A stretch of 64,000 nucleotides of DNA from positions 157,046,001-157,110,000 of the forward strand of contig OX597814.1 of the NCBI GenBank assembly GCA_951406725.2. Direction: 5' to 3'. Every line of letters begins with the position of its first letter. The first letter of the stretch is position 1. The notes beneath the pieces are model-generated. The model saw nothing but the letters and a program-made list of their open reading frames with translations. It did no database searches and was not told the origin of the DNA. This document shows, piece by piece, positions 6,113-57,211 of this stretch. The stretch is from Octopus vulgaris. Its lineage: Eukaryota. The position numbers and the translations under genes are program-made.

Positions 6113-6559
6113 ATAATCAAAGTAAGCATCAAGGATATCCAAAGGTAGTGTAGTGCAATCGTTTCATGCTAGTTCATTTAATTAAACTCATTAGTCCTAT
6201 GGATAAGGAGCCACATATATGCGTCCTTAATTCACCTCTTTGTCTATATACCTACCCTCTTTGTAATGTTGGCAAATGGAATAAGTATAAAAATGAACAT
6301 TTAATTAAAAAAATTACATATGTGGTTGAAGAGTGCTCTACATTTTAAAACTGATTTAATACTTACGTTGTTTAATTAAATGATGTAGCATGAAACGATT
6401 GTACCACACTACCTTTGGATATCCTTGCTGCTTATTTTGATTATAATTACCCCATTTGAATTATATGGATAATACCATATCAAATTCTGGTGCCTTTAAC
6501 TTAAGTACCATATTCATCTGAATCTAAACTTTTGTTGAACTTATAATACCATACAATGT

Positions 6560-6560
<1 letters not shown>
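6113..6560 (+). mobile_element. Short non-coding HHR-bearing foldback element (PLE pLTR / retrozyme-like) in (TA)n
   Basis: 6113-6188 is an inverted copy of ~6370-6445; HHR at 6321-6408; the 3' part (TAATACCATA..ATTCTGGTGC..TTAAGTACC..ATTCAT.TGAAT) is homologous to the minus strand of 49900-50020. Confidence 0.75.
6321..6408 (+). ncRNA. Type I hammerhead ribozyme fold, variant core UUGAAGA
   Basis: TGTGG-TTGAAGA-GTGCT..AGCAT-GAAA-CGATTG-TA-CCACA: perfect 5-bp stem I, stem II GUGCU/AGCAU, short stem III, GUA cleavage triplet. Confidence 0.75.
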
Positions 6561-8829: not shown

Positions 8830-9716
8830 TTATTAATCACAATTGTTTCGACACATCTACCATCGACCGTTCTTGTGGGACACACAAAAACTGGTTCAGG
8901 AGTAGTTGGTGGTGCAGACGTATTTCGTCAGGTGATAAAAAAATCTCGTTAAAATAACTGTTCCATAATGCAACTTACCGCTTTGTAGAGAGAAAAGCAG
9001 GAGGAAAATTCTCCATATATATAGAAGATCCAAAAATAAAATTGGCGAAGACAAAAAGAGAAACGAACACTTAATCAAGCGAGAATAGTATTGAAAATAG
9101 CCGTTAACAGATATTGATGCATAAACGCCACCGGGTAAGCAGCATGGCACGAATACACAAGCTCATACAAGCATTAGCAAAAATGTGAGCATACGCACAC
9201 GCGAGGTTAAGCGCACTCATAATTGCAAAGCGAGTTAGATATTTAGTAGGTGTTTAGAAGAACGGGGAGGTTTAAAGCTAATTTAAGTCATCCATACTTT
9301 AAAGTAAAATAAAATAAAATTACACTAAGTTAACGGTTACTCAAAATTCATTCTCACTGCATCGTGCGAAAGTACATTTTTATGCGTGTAGGCGTCTCGA
9401 TAATCTTTCAGAAATTCTATTAAGTGTCTTTTCATTAGTCCACAGAATAGACAGGGATTTCTCGGAGCAGAGACGGCATCTCCTGGAAATTGCACTCTTT
9501 TGTTTTAACTATGAACCAAGTAATGTAGTATTTTGTACTAACCTCCTTCAGTCGCCATATAAAATCTGCCAAAGATGTCGAATGTCTCTTATTGATTGAC
9601 TTAAAGCAGGCAACATGATTACGATAACGATTCTTAAATGAATCAGCCGTCTGCCCAATGTAAACATAGGGCCCTTCCATTCTGTGCACGGTACATTTAT
9701 ATACAAAATTTGTACT
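8830..9716 (-). mobile_element. Penelope-like element 3' part (GIY-YIG endonuclease + pLTR)
   Basis: VYKCTV...VYIGQT..FKNRYRNH...TSLADFIWRLK is a PLE-type GIY-YIG; an HHR remnant lies downstream. Confidence 0.88.
8836..8936 (-). ncRNA. Hammerhead ribozyme remnant (cleavage site apparently deleted)
   Basis: ATCAC-CTGACGA-AATACGTCTGC...GTAGATGTGTC-GAAA-CAATTG-TGAT: canonical core and 10-bp stem II with G.U pairs, palindromic CAATTG stem III; about 3 nt missing at the NUH site. Confidence 0.6.
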
Positions 9717-11443
9717 CATACAGATTCATCAAAGGACAAATGTATTCCTGCCACAGACAGTGTTTGACCGTGCGCTTTGTTAATTGACATTGCGAAACAT
9801 GACCTTACTGGGAACTGGGTCCTCCGAAATATGAAAGGTAGGTCTGCCCCTGATGGGAAAAGATGCATCCTAGGTATGCCTCGACCGCACCCTGTGATAA
9901 TGGTGGCCTCAATCAGATTGGGAGATAAGGACTTAACGATGAAACGTGTGCCATTGCATTGTTTTAGGGGAACCAAATTTCTAATGAGCATTATAGGGGC
10001 ACCAACAGAAGTTCGCATACAACTCCGTTGTTAATTCAGTTCGGGCCAAAGCTGGGGGGATTTTTTTCCTGGACGCTCCTGGGGGCACTGGGAAAACTAT
10101 CTAAGCCAATATTAATTTATCAGAATATGGATTGGATTGGCCAAAGGACTATTCTGGCTCCGAGGAATAAGACTGTTCACCATATTAATGATGAAATGCT
10201 AAAACTCATTCCTGGGGATGTCTATGTATATAAGTCTATCGATACAACTCCTGACCCAGAGGACGTCATCAACTATCCAATAGAAGTACTCAATTCCTTT
10301 GAGCCCCCCGGACTACCACCACACATTGTGCTCATACCTAGGATGCATCTTTTCCCATCAGGAGCAGACCTACCTTTCATATTTCGGAGGACCCAGTTCC
10401 CAGTAAGGTCATGTTTCGCAATGTTAATTAACAAAGCGCACGGTCAAACACTGTCTGTGGCAGGAATACATTTGGGAGAGCCATGTTTCTCTCATGGTCA
10501 GCTTTATGTTGCCTGCTCGCGTGTCGACAGCAACAGTGATGCTTTCGCATTCGTTCCTCAACGAAAAACAAAAAAAACATTGTGTACAAGGAGGTTTTAT
10601 AGGATTACGTTTCATCATTTTCGAACACGTTAGTATTTCACTTACATACGACTCCCTTTTATGATCGCATTTACATTTTTAGGCGTTTCATGACATTAAT
10701 TCACACTTAACCAACACCTGTCCTTCGCTCACCTCTATTTCTATCCATTCATCATCAAACCACCAGCCTCATCTTCTATATCCAACGTACATGACACATC
10801 TACCCCCTACATCTACACTCTCACTGTTAAAGTTTACATAAGCGACAACACGATCGCAACATACACTTTGGAAACTAAGCAACAGATCATTTTATACAAC
10901 AACAAATTTAATCAAAACGCCCATCAATGAAAACATCTCCACCACTGTGTTGTGATTCATCTATTCAGTACCACTACAGTCTTGCCGGTCTGACATGTGG
11001 TGAGTAGATGCTATTGTTCTATATTTTATAAATTACCCATATTTACTTACCCATGCTTCATTCCCCTCTTGCCTACATAGGGCATCCATTCTCTTTTAAC
11101 ACAGCATGAAGTTTTGTAACAGCACATCCGCTGCCGTTCGTGCAAAACGAAGAAACCCTATTCACCTGCGAACGTTTTACACCGCCTTCCACGACTATCA
11201 AATTCTTACAATTATGAGAACAATAACATGGCTCTTTTCAAGGCAACCTCGCATTCAATTCTTACACCATTCTACGAGAGGTTAGGAACCCTTTTACACG
11301 GCGGCTTTCAATACACTTACAAATACATTCATTCGCCGTAAACTTATATCAATATTTGCCTGAATAATCATCATAATTCAGTGCAATCATTAACAGTACT
11401 TTCAAGCAATTCAGCCCCGAGCATCGCCGGGCAATTCTGCTAG
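9716..11443 (+). mobile_element. Helitron fragment (Pif1-like helicase C-terminus + 3' end), rearranged
   Basis: ILAPRN, PPGLPPH, RTQFPVRSCFAM.INKAHGQTL, CFSHGQLYVACSRV; inverted helicase piece at 9716-10025; 3' hairpin CCCGAGCATCGCCGGG followed by CTAG|T at 11440-11444. Confidence 0.92.
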
Positions 11444-12549
11444 TACTCAATAAGGCCCTAATTTATGCAATGAATAAGATAGGAATGACTTATGATAAAG
11501 TTAATGTTATTAAAACAGCTAGGAAAATGTTGATTAGAAATAATAATAAATTTTGGGCTAGGAAGTATACTAGGGACTTTTTGATATACCTATGGGGGCA
11601 CCCGATTCTGCACAGGCAACTGATTTAATAGGTATTTATTTATTATCGAAACTTCAATTAGAAAAATTAAAGTTGGAGGGCGGTCTATATAGGGATGACC
11701 TTTTATTAATAACTAAGAATTGCACCAATAGAACACTAGAATTATATAAGAAGAAACTATACAGTTTTTTAAAAAGATGCGGATTGAGTATTACTACATA
11801 TAATGAGAACTATAATGTTAATTATTTAGATGCTAATTTTAATTTAATAACAGATAAAACCCAACCATTCCATAAAATTAATGAAAACCTTAGATATATT
11901 AATGCTAATAGTAATCATCTGCCTCTATAAAGAAATCATTAATTGATAATACAGGTAAAAGAATATCGTTGCTTTCTTCTAATTGTGAGATTTTCCAAAA
12001 ATACGCACCTTATTATAATGAAGCCCTGCAAGAGGCGGGATATAATATTAATATTAAATTCTTTAATAATTCTAAATAGGATTATAATATAAAAGATTAT
12101 AATATAAATGATACCTAAATTTTTTGTAATAATAAACCTAACATTTAGAATTATTATGATACGTTTTATTTAGGTAATTATGGTATTAATAATATGTATT
12201 ATGATAATACAAAACATAAATATAATAGACTTAAAAATATGGTTAAATTTAATTCATTTAATGATAATAATAAATTTAATAATATAAAAAATAAATATAA
12301 TAATATTAATAATAAGAACAAAATTTGGTTAATTATTACTTATGGAGCTCAAGTTAAAACAAACATTATTAAAGAGATTTTAACTATAATTGAAGTATTC
12401 ATTAGAAATAATAAAAAATATAATAATATTTTTTCTAGTAATAATTTTGGAGTTGGTTATTCTACTACTAATAATGTAGGTAACATTATTTCTTCTTTTA
12501 ATAATTTTAAGCTGCATAAGTTTTACAAAAACAAATCAAATAATTATTC

Positions 12550-12578
<29 letters not shown>

Positions 12579-12582
<4 letters not shown>

Positions 12583-13272
12583 TAGACCATCTCGTTTCGG
12601 GATGTCCTGTGCTGACACCAAACGAATACAAAAATCGCCACGATAGGGTAGGACAGTATATACATTGGAAGATATGTAAACACTACAAATTCGGCACTCC
12701 TGCTAACTGGTATGAACACCATCCTCAGCCAGTTGTTGAAGGTAAAGATGTCACCATCCTCTGGGATTTTCCAGTCAACACTGACAGAACGATCAAGGCT
12801 AATCGACCAGACATAATTGTTAAAGACAGGGAAGAAAATACCTGCAGACTAATAGAGGTAAGCGTCCCCACTGATAAAAATGTATCTGTAAAGGAATTTG
12901 ACAAACTTAGTAAATATAAGGACCTGGAAATCGAAATACAAAAGATGTGGAATCTTAAAACAAAAACTGTTCCTGTTATTGTAGGTGCCCTAGGTATGAT
13001 AAAAAAGGGATGTCAGAAACACCTAGACAATATCTCTGGAGAACCATGTCTCAAGGAAATCCAAAAGATTGTGCTAACAAGTACTGCCCACATCCTTAGA
13101 AAAACCCTATCAATGTAAATGTTTGTGTTTCTATTACATGGAGATATTTATCTACTTCCCCTCCCCAAGCTTTCAGCTATATTTCAACAACTCTTAACCT
13201 TCACTTGCTCTAGGGCGCTGGGTGTGCCCCGGCAAGTGATTGCATCAAACATGCAGATTAAAAGTAAATGAC

Positions 13273-13275
<3 letters not shown>
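12579..13275 (+). mobile_element. 5'-truncated R4/Dong-type non-LTR retrotransposon (restriction-like endonuclease) in (AAT)n
   Basis: TIDHLVSGC...YKNRHDRV..IHWKIC..ILWDFPVNTDRTIKANRPDIIV..IEVSVP..KLSKYKDL: end of the CCHC motif plus PD-(D/E)xK RLE, open frame to 13118; (AAT)n on both sides. Confidence 0.9.
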
Positions 13276-13304
<29 letters not shown>

Positions 13305-13444
13305 TATAATTAATTGTTCGTGTAGAGATAAAACTAAATATTAATTTAATAATAAATGTAATTTCGATGATACAGTATATAAATGTGTAGTGACTTTGAT
13401 TCATGATAACAGTAGGAATGGTTATAATTTAAATGCAATTCACA

Positions 13445-13722
13445 TACTCTTTTTCTCTTTTACTCTTTTACTTGTTTCAGTCATTTGATTGCGGCTATGC
13501 TGGAGCACCGCCTTTAATCGAGCAAATCGACCCCGGGGCTTATTCTTTTTGTAAGCCCAGTACTTATTCTATCGGTCTCTTTTGCCGAACCGCTAAGTAA
13601 CGGGGACATAGACACACCAGCATCGATTGTCAAGCAATGCTAGGGGAACAAACACAGACACACAAACACACACACGCATATAGATACATACATATATATG
13701 ACGGGCTTCTTTCAGTTTCCAT
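13445..13722 (-). mobile_element. SINE 3' half with LINE-like tail
   Basis: Homologous to 14160-14420; minus-strand tail GGCGGTGCTCCAGCATAGCCGCAATCAAATGACTGAAAC + (AAGAGTA)n-like repeats. Confidence 0.85.
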
Positions 13723-13984
13723 CTATTCGAGTTTGGGGTTAACTTCATATAATTTTTGTTTTTATTCTCTTTGGAATTACTTTTTTCATAGTTTGGGTTT
13801 GGCTGCCCTTTTTAGCATAAAAGGTGTCCTGTCAAGGGTCACCTCTCTGTATAAGTACTTATACACTCTTATATGAAGATATGTTGTCTATAGACTTTTA
13901 TTATGTATGCTAGCCACCGGTATGAACATTTTTCTAAATTTTCTATCTTTATAATTTTCCCAGTATATATACATATATATATTA

Positions 13985-14145
13985 CAGGCTTTTTTTTCGG
14001 TTTCTGTCTACCAAATACACTTAGAAGGCTTTGGTTGACCCAAAGCTATAGTAGAAGACTCTTGCCCAGAGTGCCACACAGTGAGACTGAATCTGGGACC
14101 AAGTGGTTGTGAAATAAACTTGTTATCACACAGTCATGCCTGCAT
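13985..14145 (-). mobile_element. SINE 5' half (tRNA-like head), diverged
   Basis: Homologous to 14405-14560. Confidence 0.75.
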
Positions 14146-14159
14146 TCATATATATATAT

Positions 14160-14565
14160 ACTCTTTTACTCTTTTACTTATTTCAGTCATTTGACTGCAG
14201 CCATGCTGGAGCACCACTTTTAGTCAAGTAAATCAACCCTAGGACTTATTCTTTGTAAGCCTAGTACTTATTCTATCGGTTTCTTTTGCTGAACCGCTAA
14301 GTTACGGGGACGTAAACACACCAGCAATGGTTGTCAAGCGATGTTGGAGGGACAAACATAGATACACTCAGACACACACATATATACATATACACATTTA
14401 CGATGGGCTTCTTTCAGTTTCCGTCTACCAAATCCCCTCACAAGGCTTTGGTCGGCCCGAGGCTATAGTAGAAGACACTTGCCCAAGGTGCCACGCAGTG
14501 GGACTGAACCCGGAACTATGTGGTTGGTAAACAAGCTACTTACCACACAGCCACTCCTGCGCCTA
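14160..14565 (-). mobile_element. Full-length tRNA-derived SINE with LINE-like tail
   Basis: Minus strand: GGAGTGGCTGTGTGGTAAG (A-box) ... GGTTCAGTCCC (B-box); tail GGTGCTCCAGCATGGCTGCAGTCAAATGACTGAAA + AAGAGTA repeats. Confidence 0.9.
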
Positions 14566-14788
14566 GGGTAGACTTCTGATAAAATTAAATTAAGGTGACT
14601 AAACACATGAATTCTTTTAAGAATAGAAATTTAATTAATTCTACTGACCTTAGTAAAGATATATGGGAATTATATCTAAAAATATTTGGTACAATTCAAA
14701 TTAGGAGATAGTTTGTAAGGCAAAATCATATCGAATAGGTAGTAATTTTTGTTTATTATGTACTAACGAATTTAAGGAGATATTATTA

Positions 14789-14840
14789 ACGGCGGTGCAT
14801 CAGCATGGTCGCAGCTCTGAGCTGAAACTTAAAAAAAACT
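14789..14840 (+). mobile_element. Isolated ~50-bp LINE/SINE 3'-terminal motif insertion
   Basis: GGCGGTGCATCAGCATGGTCGCAGCTCTGAGCTGAAAC + A run; matches the family A 3' end. Confidence 0.75.
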
Positions 14841-15059
14841 AATAATAAAATTAATTAATTTTCTAGACGAACGAAAAATTAAATGTAGACATAAATTAAA
14901 TTACTTATATAATGAGTTTAGCTAATTTTTGTATATATATAAACCTTGTTTTATGTTACTAATTCTTGTAGTTATAATTTGTAGTAGTAAAATGTGTATA
15001 AATTAGCACGAGATTATATAGTCTATATTACATAATTAGAATAAGTTGAAAACTAGATG

Positions 15060-16310
15060 TTTATAAAAGTTAAGATATGAGTGTGAGTCGGTGTGTTTGT
15101 AGTGGATAGAGGTAGTGAGAGCAGAGTGGTGTATGTTGACTGAAATGTCAAGAAATGCAAAGGTAATGATGGGAATAGTGCAGGAGAATTCGAGGGCAGG
15201 ATGGAAGGATTGGATGGAAGAGAGGAAGGAGTCTAGTTGCTTACGGAAGAGTGAGGTCGCACTGATACAGTTATCAATAAAACGACCATATAGTTCGGGA
15301 GTGGGACCAGTGAATCGTGAGAATACTTGGGTTTCAACGTAGCCAACGAGCAGGTTCACATATTTGGGGACCATCTTCGTTCCCATGGTCACTTCCGAGA
15401 GCTAAAAATCCCCTGGAACGAGAATCTGTTGAGAGAGACAAGTTTGGCCAGACGAAGAAGTGTGGAGGCTTCAAGTTGGGGTTCGGTAGAAGGTCTCGGA
15501 AGTTTTGAGTGCAAGGAGTTTTGAGAGGGTCCAGGAAGGAAGGGGAAAGACTTGAAGGGACGGAGAGCATGGTTAGTGACATGGATGTAGAAGGGGAAGG
15601 AAGTCACTGGGTGGGGGGCAAAGACATGGTCGAGGGATTTTGAGATCAATTCCATGGGGCAGTTACGAGCGGAGAGAATGGGGTGGCCAGGGTTGTTGGG
15701 CTTGTGGATTTTGGCAAGGAACTAAATGGTGGGGGTGTGTTTAATGCGGACAATGAGGTTGGAGGCGATGGGAGGAAGACGGGGGGTGGAGACGAGGTCG
15801 GTCATGAATAGTGGAGGACACAGTCTATTGGTAGTTAGACGTGGGGTAGGAGGGCAGAGGGCAATAGAAGGAGGTGTCCTGAAGTTGGCGGAGAGCTTGA
15901 GCTTTGTAGAGGTCTGCGCGCCTGCGCGCCACACCACTGCGGCTCCACACTTGTCAGTCGGTTTTATGATGATGGGATGGTTGGCGGCCCAGGTTGGTGA
16001 AGCAGTCCTTTTCATTAGATGCAGGTGGAGTGTTGTGGAATAGTGATTATCACCTGGCACTCCGCACAAAGCTATGAATATCAGCACGGGTCTGAAGTTC
16101 GTTACTGGCTGGAGTGAGTGGGATGAACCGCAGACCTTCACTGAGAAGAGAGCACTCCGCCTTTGGGAGGGGAAGATCAGGAGGAATGGTAACAACGTAC
16201 TGAAATAGGGAGGGCGTGGATGAGTTAGACGTTGAGGAGCGGTTGGGTAGTGAAATGCTGGTAGGCAGTGGAAGGCTGGGAGGAGAGAGAGGAGGAGTAA
16301 GTGCGAAACC
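15060..16310 (-). mobile_element. Penelope-like element RT fragment (second, GC-richer family)
   Basis: IIIKPTDKCGAAVVW, PKIHKPNNPGHPILS, MGTKMVPKYVNL, LYGRFIDNC, FLDISV, HYKHTDSHSYL. Confidence 0.9.
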
Positions 16311-16786
16311 AATTTCATTAATTAGAAAAATGCTTAATTAGAAACAAGGCTTTTCTTACCAAAAGCGCATACGTGAGAAAAAAACTTAAAACATTTCTAT
16401 TGAAGAACTATTCCAGAAAATCACTTCAATAGCTTTACAAAATTTTAATAATCTTTAAAAATTTGTAAGGGAAAAGGAAAAGTGGTTGTCTTCGATTACT
16501 GCAGTTAGGTTTTATTCTATAATAATATTTTGGGGTAGATTTTATTCTATAAGTAATTCAAGCATGTTAGACGGATATATCCTCCGTTGAAAAATGGTTA
16601 TCATATGAACTTTCCCTTTTCGCTTTGTCAAAGAACACAAGGCTAGAACACGTGTTGAAGTCACGACGTTCTTTGAGATTAAAGTCACGAGTGCTTAGGC
16701 TATGGAGGTGATTTTGACAGTGCGGAAATAAAGACATTGTTAAAAATCGACATAAGGACCCGGAAGATATGCCGCTAAGCTTTTTG

Positions 16787-30849: not shown

Positions 30850-33035
30850 ATACCGGAGTAAGCACGTAAATTTGAATCAAGGTGGAAAAAGAGTACTCAA
30901 ATACCAGTGGTTAGAGTAATATGTTTTATTTAATAGCAGCATAAATATAACAGAAGCTGTTACTCAGATTTTACCGTTCCCGTCGTCGGACAGTTTTGTT
31001 AAAATAGGACAGAAATAACAGTATGTTCAAAACTAGTTAAAGGATACACCTTTAAAAATGGATTTGTTTCATTGATCCTTTCAAATAACGGTCTTAATCA
31101 TGCGAGAAACAAAATAAACAAAATAAAGGCATTCAATATAAATTATAAAATATAAAATATAAAAATCGAGGAAAACCTTTAATCGAAGAGCGGATTGAAA
31201 ATACATATTGTCATTAATGATATATGAAATATAATTCGATTAATACAATTAATACATTAAAAATTAAAATATTTCACAATGGTATATACGCATACTATAT
31301 CATCAATATACATATATATATATCAAAATACACAGATAGATGTACACAGACCACATACGTATGCAGACATATATATGCAAGACATAAATATACACACAAA
31401 TTACGCATATACATATGTATACGCAATCTTGCCTGCATGCAAAAATCACTTGGTGTATACATATAGACAAGAAGTAAAAAGTAGAGAGGGGGAAGAAAAA
31501 GAAAAGAAAAGGTAACGACCTTATAAGCAACAGATAGCTAAAGAAGTGAGTAAGAGAAGGGGAGGGTGGCGTAAAGTTACAGGACTCTATACAAGTAACG
31601 AATAGGGGAAAAAAATAAGGAAAGAAAGGAAGAAAGAAAGAAGTCTGAATATGCATAACGAAGGTTCGTAAAATAGAATTACGTATACTTGTGTATATAA
31701 AAGTATATATTAGCAGTAAATACACGTATAAGAACACATATATAAATATATAGAGATAAGTACGTAAATACACATCCACACAAATTCAAGTGAATACATC
31801 CATACATATACATCCATGTATGTGCATAAGTACAAACATACACGCATACTTACACATATACATAGGCGCATGCATATGGGTACATGTACGTGCCAACAAT
31901 ACAAATATTCACATGAAAACATGTCTAGGTCCTGACGTATATAAAAACAACATTAGTTTTTAAAATTGCTAGGTGCATAATAATAAAATTTCGATAAAAT
32001 ACATGCAAAATAGAACACCCTACATTGAATTATCTATAAATTTAACGATTAGAATAGGTTTATAAAATACAATAAGATGAAATAAAATAAAAGCAGAATC
32101 ATAAACAAGAAAATAATAATATTTGCATATAACAGTCGAAGGTTTTCCTTAAGAAATATGTAGAAATATATACAAAAGCTTTGCGATACGGAATAAATCA
32201 TGCATAATACGAAACAAATGCAACAGTGCGATCAAAAACTAGTCCAAGAATCAAAAATATACGCTATCTATATGGGATATTGCTAGTCGACATTTTAGAT
32301 TTAGCTGCGTATTCGCTTCTTTGATTTAAAGAATTATTGTCCTGGAATAAAATAAAGTATTTTTCCAGCAGACATAAATCGCACTTGATCGTTCATTTAG
32401 GAGCACGGTGCCTGTGTGGTGCAGCTCTATCCAAAATACTCCAATTCAGGTTGGAAGGTCGGGCTTCTTTTCCTTTTAATTCTCAGACATATTTCGCAAG
32501 GCTGGTTTTCGTCCTATTTTCGTGATACCTAAATGACTTTTTATGCGAATAGAATCGGGTTTTAAAAGAATTTTCAGAAGCTCCTGTATAAGTTTTATAA
32601 TCGAGTGAGCCTTCCACCTGTACTTTCGTTCTATATAGGATTTCTTTCTACAGACATTTCCCTTCCAACAGACAGGAGGATCATTGCAATTACAATTTTT
32701 AAGAGAATCGGCACTATGCTTATTAGCAATTATCCTAATGTTGTGTTGATTAATAGTAAGAATAGCTTATCTTAAGCGTTATTCTATTAAATATTTTAAA
32801 AAATTTATGGTTAGGTTGAAAATGCCTAGAGACTAATTTCAAGAAATCCCTACCTATATTTGTTTTACGGCGAAAATGAAAGCAGGGTTGAACCACAAAA
32901 TGCTGAACCTTATTACAATAGCGCATTACGGAATAGTGGATTCTCTGAGTAGATCCAGTATAACCAAATTAATGCTAGCTGTAATGCTTCATGTAGAACT
33001 AGAAAAGTTTTGTGTTTCAACCCAGCTTTCAATTT
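30850..33035 (-). mobile_element. Penelope-like element 3' part (GIY-YIG, long 3' UTR, pLTR with decayed HHR)
   Basis: YKTYTGASENSFKTRFYSHKKSF..TSLAKYV..WSILDRA..KCDLCLLEKYFIL at ~32300-32680; HHR-like CTGT-CCGACGA-CGGGAACGG-TAAA-ATCTGAG-TA-ACAG at 30957-30993. Confidence 0.85.
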
Positions 33036-33049
33036 ATATATATATATAT

Positions 33050-34612: not shown

Positions 34613-37600
34613 TCATGGGGGCTTTCTAGCAACTGCTATTTGGTGCATGAGAGAGTTCGATGCAGCTGCCCTCATCTGCCCCTCCTGCCGTGAAGTTGGT
34701 TCATCTGGGACACCTGACAGGAAGAGATCCAGCTTCATTTTAAAGACATCTGTATCCACCCCATGCAGGTCTCTCAGGTTCTTCGGGAGGACATTGAAGA
34801 GCTGTGGGCCTCGGAAGCCCAGGCTATCACAGAATCTTGTCCTACATCTTGATGGCAGGTTTGGAGTCCTAGGCACCACGCAGTGGCGCCCAGTTCTGGC
34901 ATTTGTGTAACTCTCGATGCCAAAGTTCAGGACACTTCCCTCCAGGATCTTCCAGATGTATATTATGGCATATCTTTCCCGCCTACGCTCCAGGGAGTAT
35001 AATTTTAATCTCTTGAGTCTTTCCCAGTAGCTTACATTCTGCATAGAGGCTATCTTCTTTGTGTAGCTTCGTTGGATCGCCTCAAGTTCTGTGATCAACT
35101 TGACACTGGATGGTGACCATAGCTGAGAGCAATAGTCAAAGTGGCTTAGGACAAGTGTCTTCCAGAGGACCATCATGGTTTCTTGTTCTCTTGTTCTAAA
35201 GGTTCTAAGAATCCAGCCAGCCAGCCGTCTACATTTCACTGTCAGTTTAGCAACATGTACATGAAAGGTCGCGTCATCACTCATGTGAATACCCAGGTCA
35301 CGCACTGAATGTGCCTCTGGGATTGCAATCCCTCCGGGTCCAGTGTATTCATTGGGTATTGCATTCAGTTTTGCATGCTGATAGTATAAAGCTTGAAACT
35401 TTCCAGCATTAAACTGCATGCTATTCTTTTCAGCCCACTTGTATATTTCGTCCAGCTCACATTGCAGGTGTTTAGTGTCCTCAGGGTTCTGTATTGCCTG
35501 TGAAACTTTTGTATCATCTGCATAACTTGTGATCGTGGATCTCTGCGTGGCTGAGGGCATGTCTGAGAGGGCCATTATGAACAGTAGTGGTCCCAAAACA
35601 GTGCCCTGTGGAACACCACTCATTATTTGCGTGTTAATGGAAGTGGCCCCATTGGCTACTACCACCTGACTTCTATTCTTCAGAAAGTCGTGAAGCCATT
35701 CTCCTAGTTTTCCAACTATGCCAAGATCACGCAGCCTGTGACATATCATTCCGTGATCGACTTTATCGAAGGCCTTTGCGAAGTCGAGATATATGACTTC
35801 CACATTTGAGTGGTTGAGCAGTTGTTTCAGCACCCAGTCATAGTGCTGCAGGAGCTGAGTTAAGCAGCTTCTTCCTGGTCGGAAACCATGTTGGGTGTCA
35901 GGCAGCAAGTCATTTTCTTCAAGGAAGGTGATTAGTTTCCTTCTGACTATTCGTTCCATGACCTTGCTGATGTGTGAGGTCAGAGAGATAGGTCTGTAGT
36001 TCTTTGCCTCCGCTCTGCTACCTCCTTTATGAATAGGGCATATTTTACCTTCCTTCAGTCCCCTTGGAAGTTTGCCAGCTGCAAGGAAGCTCTGAAAGAG
36101 GGACTGCAGTGGTCTTGCTAAGACTCTCTTACATACTTTTAGGAGGATTGCCGGGAATCCATCGGGGCCAGTAGCTGAGTCTATTTTCATTTCATCTATA
36201 GCCTTTATTACATCGTCTTCCTTTATCTCGATGTAACTTATCGTCGCCGCCTCTGATTCTATATCTGCAGTGGTAAAGAAGTCAGTTGGATTGCTGATTT
36301 GGAAATGCCCAAGGGGTGGAGTGAAAACACTCTTGAATTGTTCATTCAGTATTTCACTTACCCTCATTGGTTTTCCTGTGAGTGTGCCATCCTTTTCAAG
36401 GAGTGGCCCTATCCTACAGTGCACTGTAGCCGTTTCTTTGGCATACCTGTAGAAAGCTCTGGGGTTAGTTTTTATGTTGTCTATAGCCCAGGCTTCTTTG
36501 TCTGCTCTTTCCTTCTCATGGGAAAGTTGCAGACAATTTTCAATTTCCAACAGTTTTATTTTCAGGCGGGACTTTTCACTACTTTCAATTTGTTTGTTTA
36601 GGCGATTTGAAATTTTTGTACGCCGTCTCATTAAAATTTTCCTCTCTCTGGGGATTTTGTTCTTGTGTACAGTGGCCTTTCTCTCTGGGACACATTTGTA
36701 GCATATGGCTTGCATTACAGACATGAATTGTTGAAGTATCATGTCGATGTCCGGCGAGGAGAGACATTCAGGCCAGTTTTGTTTGAGGATCTCTTTCTCA
36801 ATTTGTTTCCAGTTTGCCTTATTGAAGTTCAGGCTGGAAAGATTCTGAGGGTTTCTTGTAGGCTGCATGTCCGTGCTCTCTTTTGGCCCGTACATGGTCA
36901 GCTCTACCATGTTGTGATCCGAGAGTAGTGTCGGTGTCACTTTCACATTATGGATGAGATCCATATTATTTGTGAAGCAGAGATCCAGTGTGTTACCTGC
37001 TCTGGTTGGTTGCAGTATTACTTGCTCCATGTACAGGGTGTTGGTGAGGTTCAGGAGGGACCTCGCCTGTCCACGTTCACATCTTGTCATTCCTGGGAGA
37101 GAAAGGCCCTCGGGCCATCTGACATTGGGCAGATTGAAGTCTCCCATGAGAAGTACACTTATGTGTTGTTCTAATGTGGTTAGAACTTCTTCTATTTTTA
37201 AAAGGCAGTCCTCGAACTTGCCCATATGACTTGGGGCATCTGGAGGGCGATATGTAGCACACACAACTACATCAAGTTGCCTTATGTGTACAATTAGTGT
37301 GTCACACACCGAGTTTGAGTATGACAAAAGGACCTGGGGTGTGAGGTCCCCACGGATGTACATAGCAACTCCTCCATGACTCCTTTCTTTCCTGTCGGTC
37401 CGTAGTACAACATACTGTGGTATGTGTAATTCCGCATCTGCTATGTCCGGTTTCAGATGCGTTTCTGTGAGTGCTATGCATAAGGCTTGATTGCATGCGA
37501 CAAAGTCTCTCAGGAACGGGACTTTTGTCCTGTTACTGTGTGTTAGTAAACCTCTGATGTTCAGTAGGAGCATCGAGGTGAGGTGTATGCTGTTGCCGGC

Positions 37601-37717
37601 GTTGTCCACCCTGGGTCCATCTGCTGTGGCGGTCTTGTGAACTGTGGGCAGTTCCATCTGCGAGCCTGAGCCTGATGGAGCCAGGTTAGCTGCTGTACAA
37701 TCTTTTGTGCCATGCAC
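34613..37717 (-). CDS. LINE ORF2: APE endonuclease + reverse transcriptase, 1034 aa, intact (non-AUG start)
   Basis: APE motifs NIRG, LTETHL, YRPP, GDFN, LDL, SDH; RT motifs [40 protein letters not shown]; CR1-group C-terminus LYSLERRR. The annotated start codon is GTG. Confidence 0.97.
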   Translation of the reverse strand: MHGTKDCTAANLAPSGSGSQMELPTVHKTATADGPRVDNAGNSIHLTSMLLLNIRGLLTHSNRTKVPFLRDFVACNQALCIALTETHLKPDIADAELHIPQYVVLRTDRKERSHGGVAMYIRGDLTPQVLLSYSNSVCDTLIVHIRQLDVVVCATYRPPDAPSHMGKFEDCLLKIEEVLTTLEQHISVLLMGDFNLPNVRWPEGLSLPGMTRCERGQARSLLNLTNTLYMEQVILQPTRAGNTLDLCFTNNMDLIHNVKVTPTLLSDHNMVELTMYGPKESTDMQPTRNPQNLSSLNFNKANWKQIEKEILKQNWPECLSSPDIDMILQQFMSVMQAICYKCVPERKATVHKNKIPRERKILMRRRTKISNRLNKQIESSEKSRLKIKLLEIENCLQLSHEKERADKEAWAIDNIKTNPRAFYRYAKETATVHCRIGPLLEKDGTLTGKPMRVSEILNEQFKSVFTPPLGHFQISNPTDFFTTADIESEAATISYIEIKEDDVIKAIDEMKIDSATGPDGFPAILLKVCKRVLARPLQSLFQSFLAAGKLPRGLKEGKICPIHKGGSRAEAKNYRPISLTSHISKVMERIVRRKLITFLEENDLLPDTQHGFRPGRSCLTQLLQHYDWVLKQLLNHSNVEVIYLDFAKAFDKVDHGMICHRLRDLGIVGKLGEWLHDFLKNRSQVVVANGATSINTQIMSGVPQGTVLGPLLFIMALSDMPSATQRSTITSYADDTKVSQAIQNPEDTKHLQCELDEIYKWAEKNSMQFNAGKFQALYYQHAKLNAIPNEYTGPGGIAIPEAHSVRDLGIHMSDDATFHVHVAKLTVKCRRLAGWILRTFRTREQETMMVLWKTLVLSHFDYCSQLWSPSSVKLITELEAIQRSYTKKIASMQNVSYWERLKRLKLYSLERRRERYAIIYIWKILEGSVLNFGIESYTNARTGRHCVVPRTPNLPSRCRTRFCDSLGFRGPQLFNVLPKNLRDLHGVDTDVFKMKLDLFLSGVPDEPTSRQEGQMRAAASNSLMHQIAVARKPP

Positions 37718-38439
37718 AAAAAAGATTCCTGCTCAGCAGCTGCCCTTTCAACAACACGTTGGTGGTTTGTGGTACGCACCACATCTGCGTACCTCCGTTT
37801 TGGGGCAGGTGATGCCTGGTCCATCCCATTTCCTTTCGGTGGTTGGTTTCTGTGGCAGGGTCCCGGATGTGCAAAGCGGCAGCCTGCACCTTCCTCTCCA
37901 TGCCGGCAGGCACCTTTCAGGTAGAACCTACATACCCGTGTGCGCTGCTTGTTTCCATCCTTTTTGGCATATGGACCGTTAGGTTTGCCTCTGTCCCTGG
38001 CTGCCTTGTCCCTTGGCTTTGTCTGAGTTTTAGCTTCAGTTTTTCCTCTTTTTTTGGCCTCTTCATCTCCATGTCCACGGCTTTTGGAGCCGGTAGGAGC
38101 ATCCGTACCTGGGTTCACCTCCCGGGCAGGCCTATCGTTGGAGTTTTCTTCCTGGGCGTCCACCAGGTGGGGGTGACCCTCCTCATCTGCGCCCACGTCT
38201 CCATCCTTGCCATCTTTACTTTGTTCGCGTTTTTCGCTGTTAAAAATGGCATCCAGTGTGTTTATGTGCGATCTGACAAGTGCGTATGAGCGTACGAACT
38301 CTTGCCTCTTCCGCTCTATTTGTGCTGATGTCCTTTTGAATCCTTTGTTCTTTAGTGCTGCCGCAATTATGTTACTTGGACTTTCTCCGTCAGCGCATTG
38401 CCATCCTCGCAGGAACCACACCAGTTCATCACGTTTCCA
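37561..38439 (-). CDS. LINE ORF1 (start missing): Myb/SANT-like N-terminus, charged linker, CCCH zinc finger
   Basis: [42 protein letters not shown] resembles a trihelix Myb/SANT domain; [22 protein letters not shown] is C-x7-C-x8-C-x3-H. The first 21 aa of the ORF-track protein come from microsatellite. Confidence 0.85.
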
Positions 38440-41587: not shown

Positions 41588-44500
41588 TCATGGAGGCTTT
41601 CTAGCAACTGCTATTTGGTGCATGAGAGAGTTCGATGCAGCTGCCCTCATCTGCCCCTCCTGCCGTGAAGTTGGTTCATCTGGGACACCTGACAGGAAGA
41701 GATCCAGCTTCATTTTAAAGACATCTGTATCCACCCCATGCAGGTCTCTCAGGTTCTTCGGGAGGATATTGAAGAGCTGTGGGCCTCGGAAGCCCAGGCT
41801 ATCACAGAATCTTGTCCTACATCTTGATGGCAGGTTTGGAGTCCTAGGCACCACGCAGTGGCGCCCAGTTCTGGCATTTGCGTAACTCTCGATGCCAAAG
41901 TTCAGGACACTTCCCTCCAGGATCTTCCAGATGTATATTATGGCATATCTTTCCCGCCTACGCTCCAGGGAATATAATTTTAATCTCTTGAGTCTTTCCC
42001 AGTAGCTTACATTCTGCATAGAGGCTATCTTCTTTGTGTAGCTTCGTTGGATCGCCTCAAGTTCTGTGATCAACTTGACACTGGATGGTGACCATAGCTG
42101 AGAGCAATAGTCAAAGTGGCTTAGGACAAGTGTCTTCCAGAGGACCATCATGGTTTCTTGTTCTCTTGTTCTAAAGGTTCTAAGAATCCATCCAGCCAGC
42201 CGTCTACATTTCATTGTCAGTTTAGCAACATGTACATGAAAGGTCGCGTCATCACTCATGTGAATACCCAGGTCACGCACTGATTGTGCCTCTGGGATTG
42301 CAATCCCTCCGGGTCCAGTGTATTCATTGGGTATTGCATTCAGTTTTGCATGCTGATAGTATAAAGCTTGAAACTTTCCAGCATTGAACTGCATGCTATT
42401 GTTTTTAGCCCACTTGTATATTTCGTCCAGCTCACATTGCAGGTGTTTAGTGTCCTCAGGGTTCTGTATTGCCTGTGAAACTTTTGTATCGTCTGCATAA
42501 CTTGTGATCGTGGCTCTCTGCGTGGCTGAGGGCATGTCTGAGAGGGCCATTATGAACAGTAGTGGTCCCAGAACAGTGCCCTGCGGAACACCGCTCACTA
42601 TTTGTGTGTTAATGGAGGTGGCCCCATTGGCTACTACCACCTGACTTCTATCCTTCAGAAAGTCATGAAGCCATTCTCCCAGTTTTCCAACTATGTTGAG
42701 ATCACGCAGTTTGTGACATATCATTCCATGATCGACTTTATCAAAGGCCTTTGCAAAGTCGAGATATATCACTTCCACATTTGAGTGGTTGAGCAGCCGT
42801 TTCAGCACCCAGTCATAGTGTTGTAGGAGCTGAGTTAAACAGCTTCTCCCTGGTCGGAAACCATGTTGGGTGTCGGGCAGCAAGTCATTCTCTTCAAGGA
42901 AGATGATCAGCTTCCTTCTGACTATTCGTTCCATGACCTTGCTGATGTGTGAGGTCAGAGAGATAGGTCTATAGTTCTTGGCTTCCGCTCTGCTACCTCC
43001 TTTATGAATGGGGCATATTTTACCTTCCTTCAGTTTTCCTGGAAGTTTGCCAGCTGCAAGGAAGCTCTGAAAGAGGAACTGCAGTGGTCTTGCTAGGACT
43101 CTCTTACATGCTTTTAGGAGGATTGCCGGGAATCCATCGGGGCCAGTAGCTGAGTCTGTTTTCATTTCATCTATAGCCTTGGTTACATCGTCTTCCTTTA
43201 TATCGATGTAATCTATCGTCGCCGCCTCTGATTTTATATCTGCAGTGGTAAAAAAGTCAGTTGGATTGGTGATTTGGAGATGCCCAAGGGGTGGAGTGAA
43301 AACACTCTTGAATTGCTCATTCAGTATTTCACTTACCCTCATTGGTTTTCCTGTAAGTGTGCCATCCTTTTCGAGGAGTGGCCCTATTCTACTGTGCACT
43401 GTAGCTGTTTCTTTGGCATACCTGTAGAAAGCTCTGGGGTTAGATTTTATGTTTTCTATAGCCCAGGCTTCTTTGTCTGCTCTTTCTTTTTCATGGGAGA
43501 GTTGCAGACATTTTTCGATTTCCAACAGTTTTATTTTTAGGCGGGACTTTTCACTGCTTTCAATCTGTTTGTTTAGGCGATTTGAAAATTTCGTACGCCG
43601 TCTCATTAAAATTTTCCTCTCTCTGGGGATTTTGTTCTTGTGTACAGTGGCCTTTCTCTCTGGGACACATTTGTAGCATATGGCTTGCATTACAGACATG
43701 AATTGTTGAAGTTTCACGTCGATGTCTGGCGAGGAGAGACATTTAGGCCAGTTTTGTTTGAGGATCTCTTTCTCAATTTGTTTCCAGTTTGCCTTATGGT
43801 AGTTCAAGCTGGAAAGATTTTGAGGGTTTCTTGTAGGCTGCATGTCCGTGCTCTCTTTTGGCCCGTACATGGTCAGCTCTATCATGTTGTGATCCGAGAG
43901 TAGTGTCGGTGTCACTTTCACATTATGGATGAGATCCATGTCATTTGTGAAGCAGAGATCCAGTGTGTTACCTGCCCTGGTTGGTTGGAGTATTACCTGC
44001 TCCATGTACAGGGTGTTGATGAGGTTCAGGAGGGACCTCGCCTGTCCTCGTTCACATCTTGTCATTCCTGGGAGAGAAAGGCCCTCGGGCCATCTGACAT
44101 TGGGCAGATTGAAGTCTCCCATAAGAAGCACACCTATGTGTTGTTCTAATGTGGTTAGAATTTCTTCTATTTTTATAAGGCAGTCTTCAAACTTGCCCAC
44201 ATGGCTTGGGGCATCTGGAGGGCGATATGTAGCACACACAACTACATCAAGTTGCTTAATATGTACAATTAGTGTGTCACACACCGAATTTGAGTATGAC
44301 AAGAGGACCTGGGGTGTGAGGTCCTCACGGATGTACATAGCAACACCTCCATGACTCCTTTCTTTCCTGTCGGTCCGTAGTACAGCATACTGTGGTATGT
44401 GTAACTCCGCATCTGCTATGTCCGGTTTCAGGTGCGTTTCTGTAAGTGCTATGCATATGGCTTGATTGCATGCAACAAAGTCTCTCAGGAACGGGATCTT

Positions 44501-44692
44501 TGTCCTGTTACTGAGTGTTTGCAGTCCTCTGATGTTCAGTAGGAGTATCAAGGTGAGGTGTACGTTGTTGCCGGCGGTGTCCATCCTGTGTCTGTTTGCT
44601 GTGGTGGTCTGGTATATAGTGGGTAGTCCCACCTGCGGGCTTGGGTTTGATGAAGCCAGGTCAGCTGCTGTACAATCTTTTGTGCCATGCAC
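41588..44692 (-). CDS. LINE ORF2: APE + RT, 1034 aa, intact (non-AUG start)
   Basis: Same motifs and length as 34613-37717. Confidence 0.97.
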
Positions 44693-45446
44693 AAAAAAGA
44701 TTGTTGCTCAGCAGCTGCTCTTTCGACAACATCATGTTGGCTGTTTGTGGCGCGCACAACATCTGCGTACCTCCGCTTTGGGGCAGGTGGTGCGTGGTCC
44801 ATCCCTTTTCTTTGTGTTGATGGTTTGTCCATCTGCCTCGTGTCTCTGTGGCAGGGTCCCCGATGTGCAAAGCGGCAGCCTGCACCTTCCTTTCCGTGCC
44901 AGCAGGAACCTCTCAGGTAGAACATACACACCCGTGTGCGCTGTTTGGTTCCATCCTTTGCGGTTCCACTTCTACTCCTGGTTGTTTCACTCTTTGGTCC
45001 TGCTTGAGCTTTTTCTTTTCCTTTAGCTCTTCCAGTCCTTCTTTTAGTTCTTCTTCCTCCTCTACCTCTTCACCGGGTTCTCCGTCTCCATGGCCCTTGC
45101 TGCCGGTTGGAGAACTTGCACCTGGGTTCACTTCCCGGGCAGGTTTCTCATTCAAAACCTCCTCCCGGGCGTCCACCAGGTGGGGGTGACTTCTTTCATC
45201 GTCTCCATTCTTGCCATCTTTGCCCCGCTCGTTCTCAAAGATGGCATCAAGTGCGCCAATGTGCGACCGTACAAGCGCATATGAGCGCACGAATTCCTGT
45301 CTCTTTCGCTCCATCTGAGCCGCCGTCCTCTTGTAGCCTCTGCTCTTCAGCGCAGCCGCAATCACCTCGCTAGGGCTATCTCCGCCGGCGCACTCCCATG
45401 CTCGTACGAATAAATCCAGCTCGTCACGTCTCCATGCTCTGGACAT
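44548..45446 (-). pseudogene. LINE ORF1 (Myb/SANT-like + CCCH), frameshifted near 44930-45000
   Basis: ORF 44913-45446 ([34 protein letters not shown]) and ORF 44548-44931 ([22 protein letters not shown]) together align to copy 1 ORF1. Confidence 0.85.
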
Positions 45447-45499: not shown

Positions 45500-46384
45500 G
45501 GAAGATATTAAGGCTAATTAGAAGATAGAGTACTTGAAAAAGAAATATTAACAATATTAAAGTTTGTGTAAAAACGTTATTTGGGTAAAAACGTTATTTA
45601 ATCTTAAGGCTAATTAGGGGATAGAGTATCTGAAAATGTATTAGCAATATTAATATTATATTAGAGTGTGGATAAAAACGTTGTTTAATCTTAAGGCTAA
45701 TTAGGAGAGAGAGTATCTGAAAATATATTAGCAATATTAATATTATATTAGAGTGTGGGTAAAAAAAAAACGTTATTTAATCTTAAGGCTAATTTGGAGA
45801 TAGAGTATCTGAAAATATATAAGCAATATTAATATTATATTAGAGTGTGGGTAATATTAAACGTTATTTAATTTAATCTTAAGGCTAATTAGAAGACAGA
45901 GTATCTGAAAAATTATATATACAATATTAATCAATATTAACCGTTATTTAATTTAATCTTAAGGCTAATTTGACATTATTAATATTAAACGTTATTTAAT
46001 TTAATCTTAAGGCTAATTAGAAGATAGAGTATCTGAAAATGTATTAGCAATATTAATATTATATTAGAGTGTAGATAAAAACGTTATTTAATCTTAAGGC
46101 TAATCAGGAGATAGAGTATCTGAAAATATATTAGCAATGTTAATATTATATTAGAGTGTGGGTAATATTAAACGTTATTTAATTTAATCTTAAGGCTAAT
46201 TAGAAGATAGAGTATCTGAAGAATTATTAACAATATTAAAACAATATTAAACGTTATTTAATTTAATCTTAAGGCTAATTAACAATAATTATTAACAATA
46301 TTAAACAATATTAAACGTTATTTAATTTAATCCTAAGGCTAATTAACAATAATTATTAACAATATTAAACAATATTAAACGTTA
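45500..46384. repeat. Irregular tandem repeat (about 11 copies of AACGTTATTTAATCTTAAGGCTAATT, units ~45-95 bp); putative LINE 5' UTR
   Basis: Core motif at about 45506, 45589, 45676, 45768, 45859, 45940, 45987, 46079, 46169, 46249 and 46312. Confidence 0.9.
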
Positions 46385-47470
<1,086 letters not shown>

Positions 47471-47474
<4 letters not shown>

Positions 47475-47597
47475 CAGTACAGCAATTAAGATTCAAGTGA
47501 ATTCCAATGAATTCAAATGAATGCGGTACTTAACTTAGATGCACCAGAAATCTTTATGGTATTAATCACAATATAATGTGGGGAGATTATAAACAAG
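47471..47597. repeat. 127-bp direct duplicate of 49895-50020
   Basis: ATTTCAGTACAGC...TTATAAACAAG, identical apart from a 1-bp indel. Confidence 0.97.
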
Positions 47598-48680: not shown

Positions 48681-50452
<1,772 letters not shown>

Positions 50453-54427: not shown

Positions 54428-54666
54428 TTATCGTACAACTATCTCACATATTTGTCTCCCATACCCCTGTAAATTACAAGTAACATCATTCCATTGGTAT
54501 TGGTGGTATGGCATGAAGACTACACAGCTTTCGATGCCACCAGAGGGATTACCGTCTGACCAGAATGTAAAAGTTTGTGCTTCTCCATTCTGCCATACCA
54601 AGATATTCTTAGTAAGATCTTTGCACAATCCAATATAGAAATGGCAAGATGCATCCGACTCTGGAC
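54428..54666 (-). CDS. PAN/apple + C-type lectin gene, coding exon 3 (CTLD C-terminal half, stop)
   Basis: Acceptor TTTCTTTTCAG, phase 1; FYIGL..LVWQNG..FTFWSDGNPS..ESCVVF..QWNDVTC..ICE. Confidence 0.92.
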
Positions 54667-57211
54667 CTGAAAAGAAAGGCAAAAAAGAAAAATTATATAT
54701 ATTGATTAATAATCGGTTTGTTGGAACTTGTTTATAATTCGATGTATGTTTGACCATTATATTGTATTGCTGCAATGGTAGTAGTAATAGCTACTGTTAT
54801 TGTTTAGTCCCTGTTTAGCACTGATAAGTCATGGAATTCTGCCTTATTTGTGTTGAGAGTGTATGTTTGACTGTATTCTATTATTCGGGAAACGTCTCTC
54901 GTAAGTTGAAAGGACATTCAGCGTAGATATTTTCACACACAAAGCCGCAGCTCACCGAGAACTTGCATATGATTCCCTGGTATGCGCCAAATTTTTAGAT
55001 CTTAAAATTACATGTATGTATATATGTATGTATTTAGTCTTAAAATTACAAAATATTTTGAAGCTAGGCAAAATGCATTGGGATCACGATTCCCGTTTTA
55101 AAACGGACATGCGAACATTCGTACCAAACAGTTCAAAATCTAACGGACGAACTTACTTAACCTAATTCAGTGTGCTTTGAATTGGGAAAGTTTGAAAATC
55201 GGCATAATTGGCTAAAGTATATTTCCACGTTTCTGATACAAATATAAACTTAACTTGTTTCAATTAAAATAAAACTAGCAATCTTTATATTCGTGTATGC
55301 CGGTTTCAGCAATTGAACTACAATTGCACTGTCTTCGTCTTATAATTTGTGCTTTGTGCTTTGAGTAAATAACAGAAATCAGTATATCTAGGAAGCCGGA
55401 ATTTACTGGCTTATCGAAATAGATAGAGCCATTACGTATACAAAATTTACATGGGTAAAAGAAGATTCATTTAATATCCTAGTCCAATACGGTTTTCTCA
55501 TTGTTCATATATGAGGTGATTATAATGGAAGCGCTAGCAAAAACAACTGTAGCAGCAATGGTAGCAGCAGTATTGGTTGTTGTAGTAGTAGTAGTTGGTT
55601 TTGTATAGCCTCGGTTGTTCTAAACAAGAAGGAGACTTCATATGAAAGGCACCTCATTCTTGACACCAGTCTTTTTGTACATAACTACATGCACGAGGCC
55701 TTATATGTCGTCGTGACGGTAGGTGCGATTTAAAGATAATTTAACTGTTATTTCTAGCCTGTCGAACAACACTGATGTTCCGAGAAGTATTGTATCAAAC
55801 AATCTTATGGGATTACATACAAAAGAGCCAGAGAATGGAAAGTTAATTTGCTCATGATCTTTTACCAGATATATTACCTCAGAGAAATATAAGTATGAAT
55901 GTTAGGATTCTTAAACCCCAAAGTTAACAACAAGCATTTACTGTTGTAGTTTTATTTCTAATTGTTCTTTTTTCTTTCTTTTGATAGTTTCATAGAGTAT
56001 TAAGCTAAGACATAAATTGTTAATGTCTTTTTACGTTGGGAATTTATATGCCGCCCAGTTCAACTTCACCATATATTTCTCCGCTATCAATGTAATAGAC
56101 CCGCCTCAAAATTTAGGTTTTGTGCCCGTTAGAAATCATTACGAGGTCTTCGATGAATCATAACCTGTCGTATATATTAATATAAATTATATTCTTGTTA
56201 TTAACGTAGATGCTGAAATCTGTTAATCGATCTTTGTGGCTTGAGAACCTTTACCTGTTCCTCATATATATAACTAATTATTTACAATGTAGAGTGTTGA
56301 ACTAACTAATATGGTAGGTAAATTATTTATTTAGTCTCTTTGCATATGAATTCACTACTGAAGAGAATTAACCTTTCATATTATTTGAAGGGATGCTTCT
56401 TATGAATTCGCTGATCAATTAAATCGACACTAAAGTTTTACTATAAGCATTGGCGCTATGTCGATTAAAACCAAAATCAAAATTCATAAAGGGATCCATT
56501 TCGTTGAGACTATGTTTATATTGTCAGTAATGTTCCTGCAATAAGGTAATTCAATGCTCTAAACCGTCATGACAACTGTCGTTATTAATATTGAAGAGGG
56601 TGTAGTCCAAAACATGTTCCATAATACGAAAACATTGGTTGAAAAGAAATTACATTCTGTAAAATCTCCAACAATTTATAACAATACGATTTATAACAAA
56701 ATATTTCCATTGTCTCAACATTCTACTCGAATTTGAATATGTAACAAACAGAATAAAATCTAAAGTAAATCATAACTGAAGTATTTTTGAACTGGCAAAG
56801 TTATTTTCTTTTGTAACTCATTGACAATAAATGACAATTCTTTAAAACACATATATGAAATTAAATGATTGCATTCGATATTTTATCAAAACTTGGTGTA
56901 TTTTCTCATCGAAAAAGAAATAATCAGAGTAGAAAGTACAAATAAGAGAAAAATTAGAAGTAAAACGGAATGTAATTTGCAAAATGGCATAAAATTTTAA
57001 ATGAAAATATTATTATACAGTTATAGTTTATGATATTAGATCTATATTTTGGTTACATTTGTATGTGTGTGTGGAGAGAGATAGAGAGAGAAAGAGGGAG
57101 AGAGAAAGAGAGAGGGAGAAAGAGAAAGAGAGAGAAAGAGGGAGAGAGATAAAGGGAGAGACCGTTTTTGTGTGTGAATGAGTATGTATAAAATAGTAAA
57201 ATGCTACTCAC

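Follow-up and report, generated by a model that had tools for sequence, protein, structure and literature searches.

Hammerhead-bearing foldback elements in Octopus vulgaris are probably decaying 3' ends of (TA)n-inserted PLEs

Introduction

Two short elements in the genome of Octopus vulgaris raise the question of whether a hammerhead ribozyme family can be maintained with an altered catalytic core. Both lie within a 64,000-nt stretch of contig OX597814.1 (the window), fold back on themselves next to (TA)n repeats, and carry U at core position 3, opposite G8. A change of C3 to U is known from mutagenesis to cripple hammerhead cleavage. The initial annotation proposed a cephalopod family, retrozyme-like or derived from Penelope-like retrotransposons (PLEs), with a conserved U3.G8 wobble core, in which an antisense arm could serve as a built-in off switch. 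Our literature search returned no paper naming a hammerhead C3U or U3-G8.

PLE insertions are described as truncated on their 5' side, where a copy in opposite orientation is found, as optionally tailed, and as biased toward microsatellites (PMC8557442, Craig et al. 2021). The optional tail has been accounted for by two internal start sites of the reverse transcriptase (RT), and in the same study a single C3G or G8C exchange abolished cleavage (PMC11167929, Frangieh et al. 2024). Here, we trace both elements, designated A and B, to 5'-truncated and decaying 3' ends (pseudo-LTRs, pLTRs) of high-copy, (TA)n-inserted PLEs, probably of the Hydra clade, with U3 being a private change in A and likely also in B. 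We assign this reading as a whole a probability of roughly 0.7.

Results

Anatomy of the elements

As stated in the initial annotation, A and B are homologous and share one layout composed of a 5' arm, a type I hammerhead, a common tail and (TA)n, with all features being present as described. Their components are given below together with element C, which was absent from that description.

Element A (6113-6560, plus strand)
6113-6187, minus strand: inverted 5' arm, reverse complement of 6370-6444, 92% identity over 75 nt
6188-6232, no strand assigned: junction filler, locus-specific, of low depth in contigs aligned to A
6233-6320, plus strand: 5'-truncated forward copy upstream of the ribozyme
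6321-6408, plus strand: minimal type I hammerhead, core 6326-6332, stem III 6395-6402
6445-6560, plus strand: 3' tail common to B and C, then (TA)n

Element B (50452-49895, minus strand)
50342-50452, plus strand: inverted 5' arm, 50450-50342 versus 50126-50019, 97% identity over 109 nt
50247-50342, no strand assigned: second local foldback (inner hairpin) at the truncation point
50048-50135, minus strand: minimal type I hammerhead, core 50130-50124 with U3, 59-nt stem II span
49895-50018, minus strand: 3' tail, then long (TA)n

Element C
47471-47597, minus strand: tail-only copy, 99% identical to the tail of B, adjoining the 5' end of a truncated LINE

The 3' tails of A and B are 75% identical over 108 nt (E 9e-14). 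In the arm alignment of A, both arms have drifted from each other by 8%, while those of B differ by two substitutions and one indel in 109 nt; by its sequence, B looks like a young copy. The part of A upstream of the ribozyme (6233-6320) is likely 3' UTR and did not match the Hydra protein profile introduced below; a protein search with the upstream frame of B was likewise without match. Between 46383 and 49895, the order is (TA)n, element C, the truncated LINE (47598 to ~48680), (TA)n and the tail of B. Instead of being an independent copy, element C may represent a long target-site duplication that arose when the LINE inserted.

Searching viral contigs with a tail pattern gave a single match, located inside a phage tail gene and taken as chance. 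A longer pattern had no match in metagenome, genome and viral contigs.

Hammerhead layout and detectability

The cores read TTGAAGA in A (6326-6332) and TTGATGA in B (50130-50124). Stem I comprises 5 bp in both elements, including two adjacent G-U pairs in B, and stem II 5 bp in A and 7 bp in B, with a stem II span of 59 nt in each. Stem III is 8 nt long and self-complementary in both, and the GUA triplets end at 6403 (A) and 50053 (B), after which the cuts are predicted. Stems I and II, a palindromic stem III and an NUH triplet, as expected of a minimal type I hammerhead, are present in A and B. The C3-G8 pair is lacking in the two copies themselves, whereas the majority of A's family has the CUGANGA/GAAA core with C3-G8. 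In a descriptor scan of both strands of the window, the hammerheads of A and B were the sole matches, compared with 0.025 relaxed and 0 strict matches per shuffled window in 40 dinucleotide-preserving shuffles. A GAAAC-palindrome site at 27617 (minus strand) was dropped, having no core upstream.

The predicted folds of A and B reach z-scores of -13.8 and -22.7, driven by the arms. The stem II insert of A folds no better than shuffles (z 0.08), and that of B shows a well-formed fold, with z -3.9 relative to 300 mononucleotide shuffles. Contigs diverged from A cross the insert gap-free (record 14 of run X3 and record 30 of run X9, see below), showing that the long stem II is family-wide in A's family. 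For the stem III palindromes we calculated duplex energies of -5.8 (A), -6.4 (B) and -10.0 kcal/mol (A with the letter that is common in its family at 6400). Dimeric PLE hammerheads were reportedly the subject of Lunse et al. 2017.

Rfam returned no hammerhead at A or B, neither at gathering score nor up to E 10; its microRNA and snoRNA rows stayed below gathering score, reflect hairpins, and were rejected. The present hammerheads with their long stem II insert are missed by Rfam and would also be missed by short-spacer descriptors (7-17 nt, PMC8557442), so that hammerhead censuses in genomes of this kind may undercount. Long loops of about 29-35 nt are already known from two rows for plant PLE-X in File S2 (PMC8557442).

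Core position 3 in the family of element A

To read position 3 beyond the single copy, contigs from 4 of 24 listed public runs, one run for each of four organism labels, were aligned to A at 80% likeness, comprising 3842 (X1), 3444 (X3), 126 (X5) and 1444 (X9) records. Although summed contig depth does not equal copy number, the direction of the majority at 6326 is clear, with C accounting for 79353.9 of 80137.7 in X1 (99.0%, 65 contigs), 77999.3 of 79160.1 in X3 (98.5%, 72 contigs), 197.6 of 199.8 in X5 (98.9%, 4 contigs) and 4185.7 of 4260.6 in X9 (98.2%, 34 contigs). The core of this family is the normal C3-G8, and U3 of element A is a private change. The initial annotation had made its conserved wobble core depend on U3 being the consensus; in contigs matching A, the consensus is C3 in 98.2-99.0% of depth, and the proposal fails for this family.

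Element A departs from the near-fixed majority at no fewer than eight positions in 6233-6500, three of them C to T, among the 40 of 71 rows listed. These private departures, of which there are at least eight, together with the 8% arm drift mark U3 as one lesion among several. The filler of A retains a further trace: on the minus strand, 6209-6218 matches the 5' strand of stem I and then reads C, the family letter at core position 3, with 8 matching nt preceding C-T where the body reads T-T. At the base of stem II, the family majority has U (79-93%) and not the G of A, giving a U-U pair. At 6400, a variant by which the stem III palindrome becomes perfect amounts to 55% in X1 and 13-23% in the other three runs. 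As a general caution, two decayed copies with one common mutation can mimic a conserved variant.

Inverted arms, junctions and 3' ends

The same contigs allowed us to examine the foldback. Across the junction of A (6188-6217), summed depth drops to ~160-170, compared with 1e4-1e6 in arm and body (X1, X3), with depths of 35 and 43 for the difference-free contigs that bridge it. Joints between opposite strands were found five more times, each in one contig and all at distinct places. The near single-locus depth of this junction and the scatter of the other joints indicate that the foldback is made anew with each insertion; the antisense arm of A is a by-product of insertion, in line with what has been described for PLEs, rather than a switch passed on by inheritance.

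The 3' boundaries point in the same direction. Loose ends of A's family behind 6445, 6532 and 6545 run into (TA)n, with those at 6445 including run X3, which gives the family a short as well as a long 3' end. The arm of A reaches this short end, 41 nt past the cleavage site, and the arms of A and B stop at one homologous site, TTATAA, 37 nt past the cleavage site. That both arms end there and cover the GAAA and cleavage half, with the foldback dominating the predicted fold, is also what would be expected if the arm were an evolved and inherited off switch of a foldback element moving as a unit, a form of the built-in off switch suggested in the initial annotation. However, the shared arm end coincides with the TA-flanked short 3' end of the family, the arms are unequal in length (75 versus 109 nt), and inverted repeats occur at 13 of the 92 Hydra-type loci described below as well. 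With the junction of A being locus-specific and other copies inverting elsewhere, the switch is largely refuted for A, and we give it next to no credence overall.

The boundaries bear equally on a retrozyme reading, in which A and B would be non-LTR retrozymes multiplying via circular RNA and tandem repeats. Both are short, non-coding units with a type I hammerhead and a palindromic stem III, as in non-LTR retrozymes, and according to a preprint, retrozymes originate from PLE pLTRs and leave monomers behind (bioRxiv 10.64898/2026.07.22.740005). Their defining traits, in contrast, are tandem arrays and circular RNA (PMC7229834). The window holds no tandem array of the unit, no head-to-tail joint occurs among the 15 of 17 joints listed, and the loose ends behind 6445, 6532 and 6545 lead into (TA)n. 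Copies ending in (TA)n and the lack of a head-to-tail joint among those 15 of 17 leave the retrozyme reading unsupported, and we consider it very improbable. What stands of the earlier proposal is descent of the family from a PLE, its type I hammerhead being minimal and its stem III palindromic.

Hydra-type relatives and element D

Evidence on the parent comes from decayed PLE remnants next to the elements. One of them, element D, combines a coding and a ribozyme relic.

9371-9803, minus strand: decayed remnant of a Hydra-type PLE ORF, C-terminal GIY-YIG part (profile A2, iE 3e-18)
8830-8940, minus strand: hammerhead relic, C3-G8 core 8931-8925, 75-nt stem II span

The hammerhead follows ~420 nt after the ORF remnant, its stem III palindrome is that of B, and its cleavage site is damaged. 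Judged by their positions, ORF and ribozyme probably belonged to one element, making D the best link of the long-stem-II ribozymes to the Hydra clade. A neighbouring RT remnant was taken for Naiad and then for Nematis, both of which were dropped when the consensus sequences of PMC8557442 showed it to be Hydra-type.

Two further decayed Hydra-type ORFs were observed, one at 11443-14791 (plus strand), interrupted by other repeats, and one at 32890-32297 (minus strand), whose inverted piece at 32896-33036 displays the same 5' inversion anatomy. The fragment just upstream of D (9968-10633) is presumably a Helitron-like helicase.

Starting from one ORF remnant of the window, we collected 28 relatives, aligned 17 of them and fetched 92 loci, 77 from metagenomes (from the best 80 of 499) and 15 from genome bins. 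The latter (L079-L093) are animal-type Hydra PLE ORFs in prokaryote bins, for which host contamination is likely. Full-length PLEs carry an upstream ORF with RT and GIY-YIG, which in the Hydra clade has a DKT motif, a CxCX5C linker and GIY-YIG at the C-terminus. With the Hydra profile, only the neighbouring remnants matched, while the upstream parts of A and B, both being truncated, reached a best E of 0.5; no ORF joined to A or B was seen in the window, and viral contigs contained no relative by this profile.

A Hydra-type descriptor gave 93 matches in 72 of the 92 loci, corresponding to 69 distinct hammerheads, of which 67 have C3-G8, one U3-A8 and one U3-G8. The lone U3-G8 is the inverted piece in locus L007 and differs from the sense ribozyme of L005 at position 3 alone; it is an inverted copy from a C3 family and repeats the accident seen in A. 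Among the 69, U-U and G-C occur equally often at the base of stem II (31 each), the stem II span is 10-31 nt, and the stem III segment is 9-10 nt long in 67 and 8 nt in two. In an alignment of 62 of 72 hammerheads, stem III was out of register. Distances from the cleavage site to the TA run have a bimodal distribution, with 23 of 36 falling at 30-59 nt, two at 72 and 11 at 92-118; the long end of A and B lies at 156-160 nt, compared with at most 118 nt in these relatives.

The tails of A and B showed no similarity to the 92 loci by blastn and nhmmer. A tail motif, G[AT]GC[AG]CT, occurs at 46 of 65 Hydra-type loci (background 2.9% per scanned window) and is absent from the tails of A and B, the motif being an empirical mark of the present analysis and unpublished as a criterion. 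At 46 of 65 loci (range L003-L090), the short 3' end is followed, 40-90 nt past the cleavage site, by a conserved motif of the type GCTC-hairpin-GAGCACT, which often recurs further downstream and is a candidate recognition site for RT or endonuclease; the available parts of PMC8557442 do not mention it.

In the published File S2, 26 Hydra-clade rows all have C3-G8, many with a U-U and some with a G-U stem II base, and loops of 3-10 nt; nearly all Hydra-clade families therein are listed as (TA)n-targeted (PMC8557442). A and B have the Hydra marks of (TA)n insertion, a U-U or G-Y stem II base and an AC...GT stem III, as well as the inverted 5'-truncated copy and optional 3' tail that mark the 3' end (pLTR) of a PLE. 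We regard their PLE origin as highly probable and their Hydra parentage as probable; the lack of a joined ORF, the unmatched tails, the absent tail motif and the more distant long end count against the latter.

Status of U3 in element B

The contig count at position 3 covers A's family alone, B being too distant from A to be recovered there. The arm of B stops at core position 7 and consequently keeps no record of position 3. That A and B acquired the same base by private changes would be, as a rough estimate for the given pair, an about one-in-a-thousand coincidence, and with B being young, two private hits at one base are uncomfortable. Against this argument stands that the pair was chosen for its match, out of an abundant family.

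One way around the coincidence is that U3.G8 became fixed in the subfamily of B and is inherited there, the wobble core being weakly active or the ribozyme a dead passenger; U3 of A would then be an unrelated private change. The 97% arm identity implies that B should sit near its source, its stem II insert is well folded (z -3.9), and a dead ribozyme appears tolerable, since hammerhead mutants of Anolis Poseidon insert unimpaired in vitro (PMC11167929). Yet a U3-G8 family is found neither among the 69 distinct hammerheads from the 92 Hydra-type loci nor among the 26 Hydra rows of File S2 (PMC8557442), natural variants of this pair are described as U3-A8 (PMC3088659, PMC4209133), and element D, whose stem III makes it the closest relative within the window, carries C3. 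We therefore hold inheritance to be unlikely, and U3 of B is likely a private change, too.

A bolder form of inheritance, which we consider improbable, is that B belongs to a young PLE subfamily with a fixed U3.G8 core that still cleaves, the 50-nt structured stem II insert or a PLE protein compensating. If so, nature would have amplified a hammerhead that lacks a Watson-Crick 3-8 pair and is missed by standard descriptors. One rule of hammerhead catalysis would then be less strict, and protein-assisted PLE cleavage could be tested directly.

Other repeats and genes in the window

At 15036-16321 (minus strand), the window contains decayed RT fragments of another PLE type, without a Pfam RT match, which we take to be Neptune or Poseidon-like. 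Two closely related, intact LINE ORFs of 1039 aa with endonuclease and RT (34613-37732 and 41588-44707, minus strand) each end in (TGAT)n and (TA)n and are probably recent. An irregular AT-rich array of 87-92-nt units (45563-46385) occupies the place of the second LINE's 5' end. C-type lectin (E 9e-7) and PAN domains (E 0.0035, below cut-off) at 54428-54790 and 63259-63627 (minus strand) mark probable host exons.

Discussion

Taken as decaying PLE 3' ends, A and B can be fitted into a simple insertion scheme. The RT and GIY-YIG endonuclease of the parent would nick AT-rich DNA at (TA)n and copy the RNA in a target-primed manner from one of two 3' start sites. Starting at the long end would yield the forward copy with its ~120-nt tail. 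A start at the short end, located ~37-41 nt beyond the cleavage site, would produce the inverted piece, which is attached where the forward copy is truncated on its 5' side. As long as the parent RNA is intact, the ribozyme would dimerize via the stem III palindrome and cleave after GUA, as proposed for minimal PLE hammerheads (PMC4209133). For the genomic copies A and B, we expect U3 to cripple the ribozyme and the arm to mask it.

Among known systems, cephalopod Naiad (PMC8557442) is like A and B in (TA)n insertion and inverted copies, and half-cores 35-50 nt apart are noted for two of its families (PMC8557442). However, Naiad has an N-terminal endonuclease and no canonical hammerhead, whereas the core in A's family is canonical and complete. 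The Naiad 3' ends that were compared look unlike A and B, and a motif search of the Naiad consensus file gave no A/B tail, although FASTA line breaks could hide a motif. With the canonical C3-G8 core of A's family and no Naiad tail match, we rejected a Naiad identity.

Poseidon PAc of Anolis (PMC11167929) shares the AT-rich target, the optional tail arising from two internal RT starts, and a C3-G8 ribozyme as in A's family. It differs by a tail of 30-40 nt, compared with ~120 nt here, and by a ribozyme overlapping the ORF start.

The minimal PLE hammerheads (PMC4209133, Cervera and De la Pena 2014) correspond in being of type I with a short stem I and a palindromic stem III. They are mostly solitary, with some pairs on opposite strands 100-700 bp apart, and are predicted to act as dimers, all of which is alike here. 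In contrast, their described core variant is U3-A8 and not U3-G8, and helix II comprises 7-8 bp, with no long insert in the available description.

The Hydra-clade PLEs (Penelope-5_HM, Penelope-13_HM, Hydra-1_Obim; PMC8557442) differ from A and B by a stem II span of 10-31 nt, as compared with 59 nt in A and B (75 nt in D), with stem III in A and B having 8 nt; the tails of A and B are longer and without G[AT]GC[AG]CT, and no ORF was seen attached. They are alike in (TA)n insertion, the type I hammerhead near the 3' end, the U-U or G-U base of stem II, the short palindromic stem III, the two 3' ends and the inverted 5'-truncated copy, the latter noted for Penelope-13_HM (PMC8557442). Compared with these relatives, A and B represent an apparently undescribed, abundant PLE family, the distinctive feature of which is the family-wide 59-nt stem II span.
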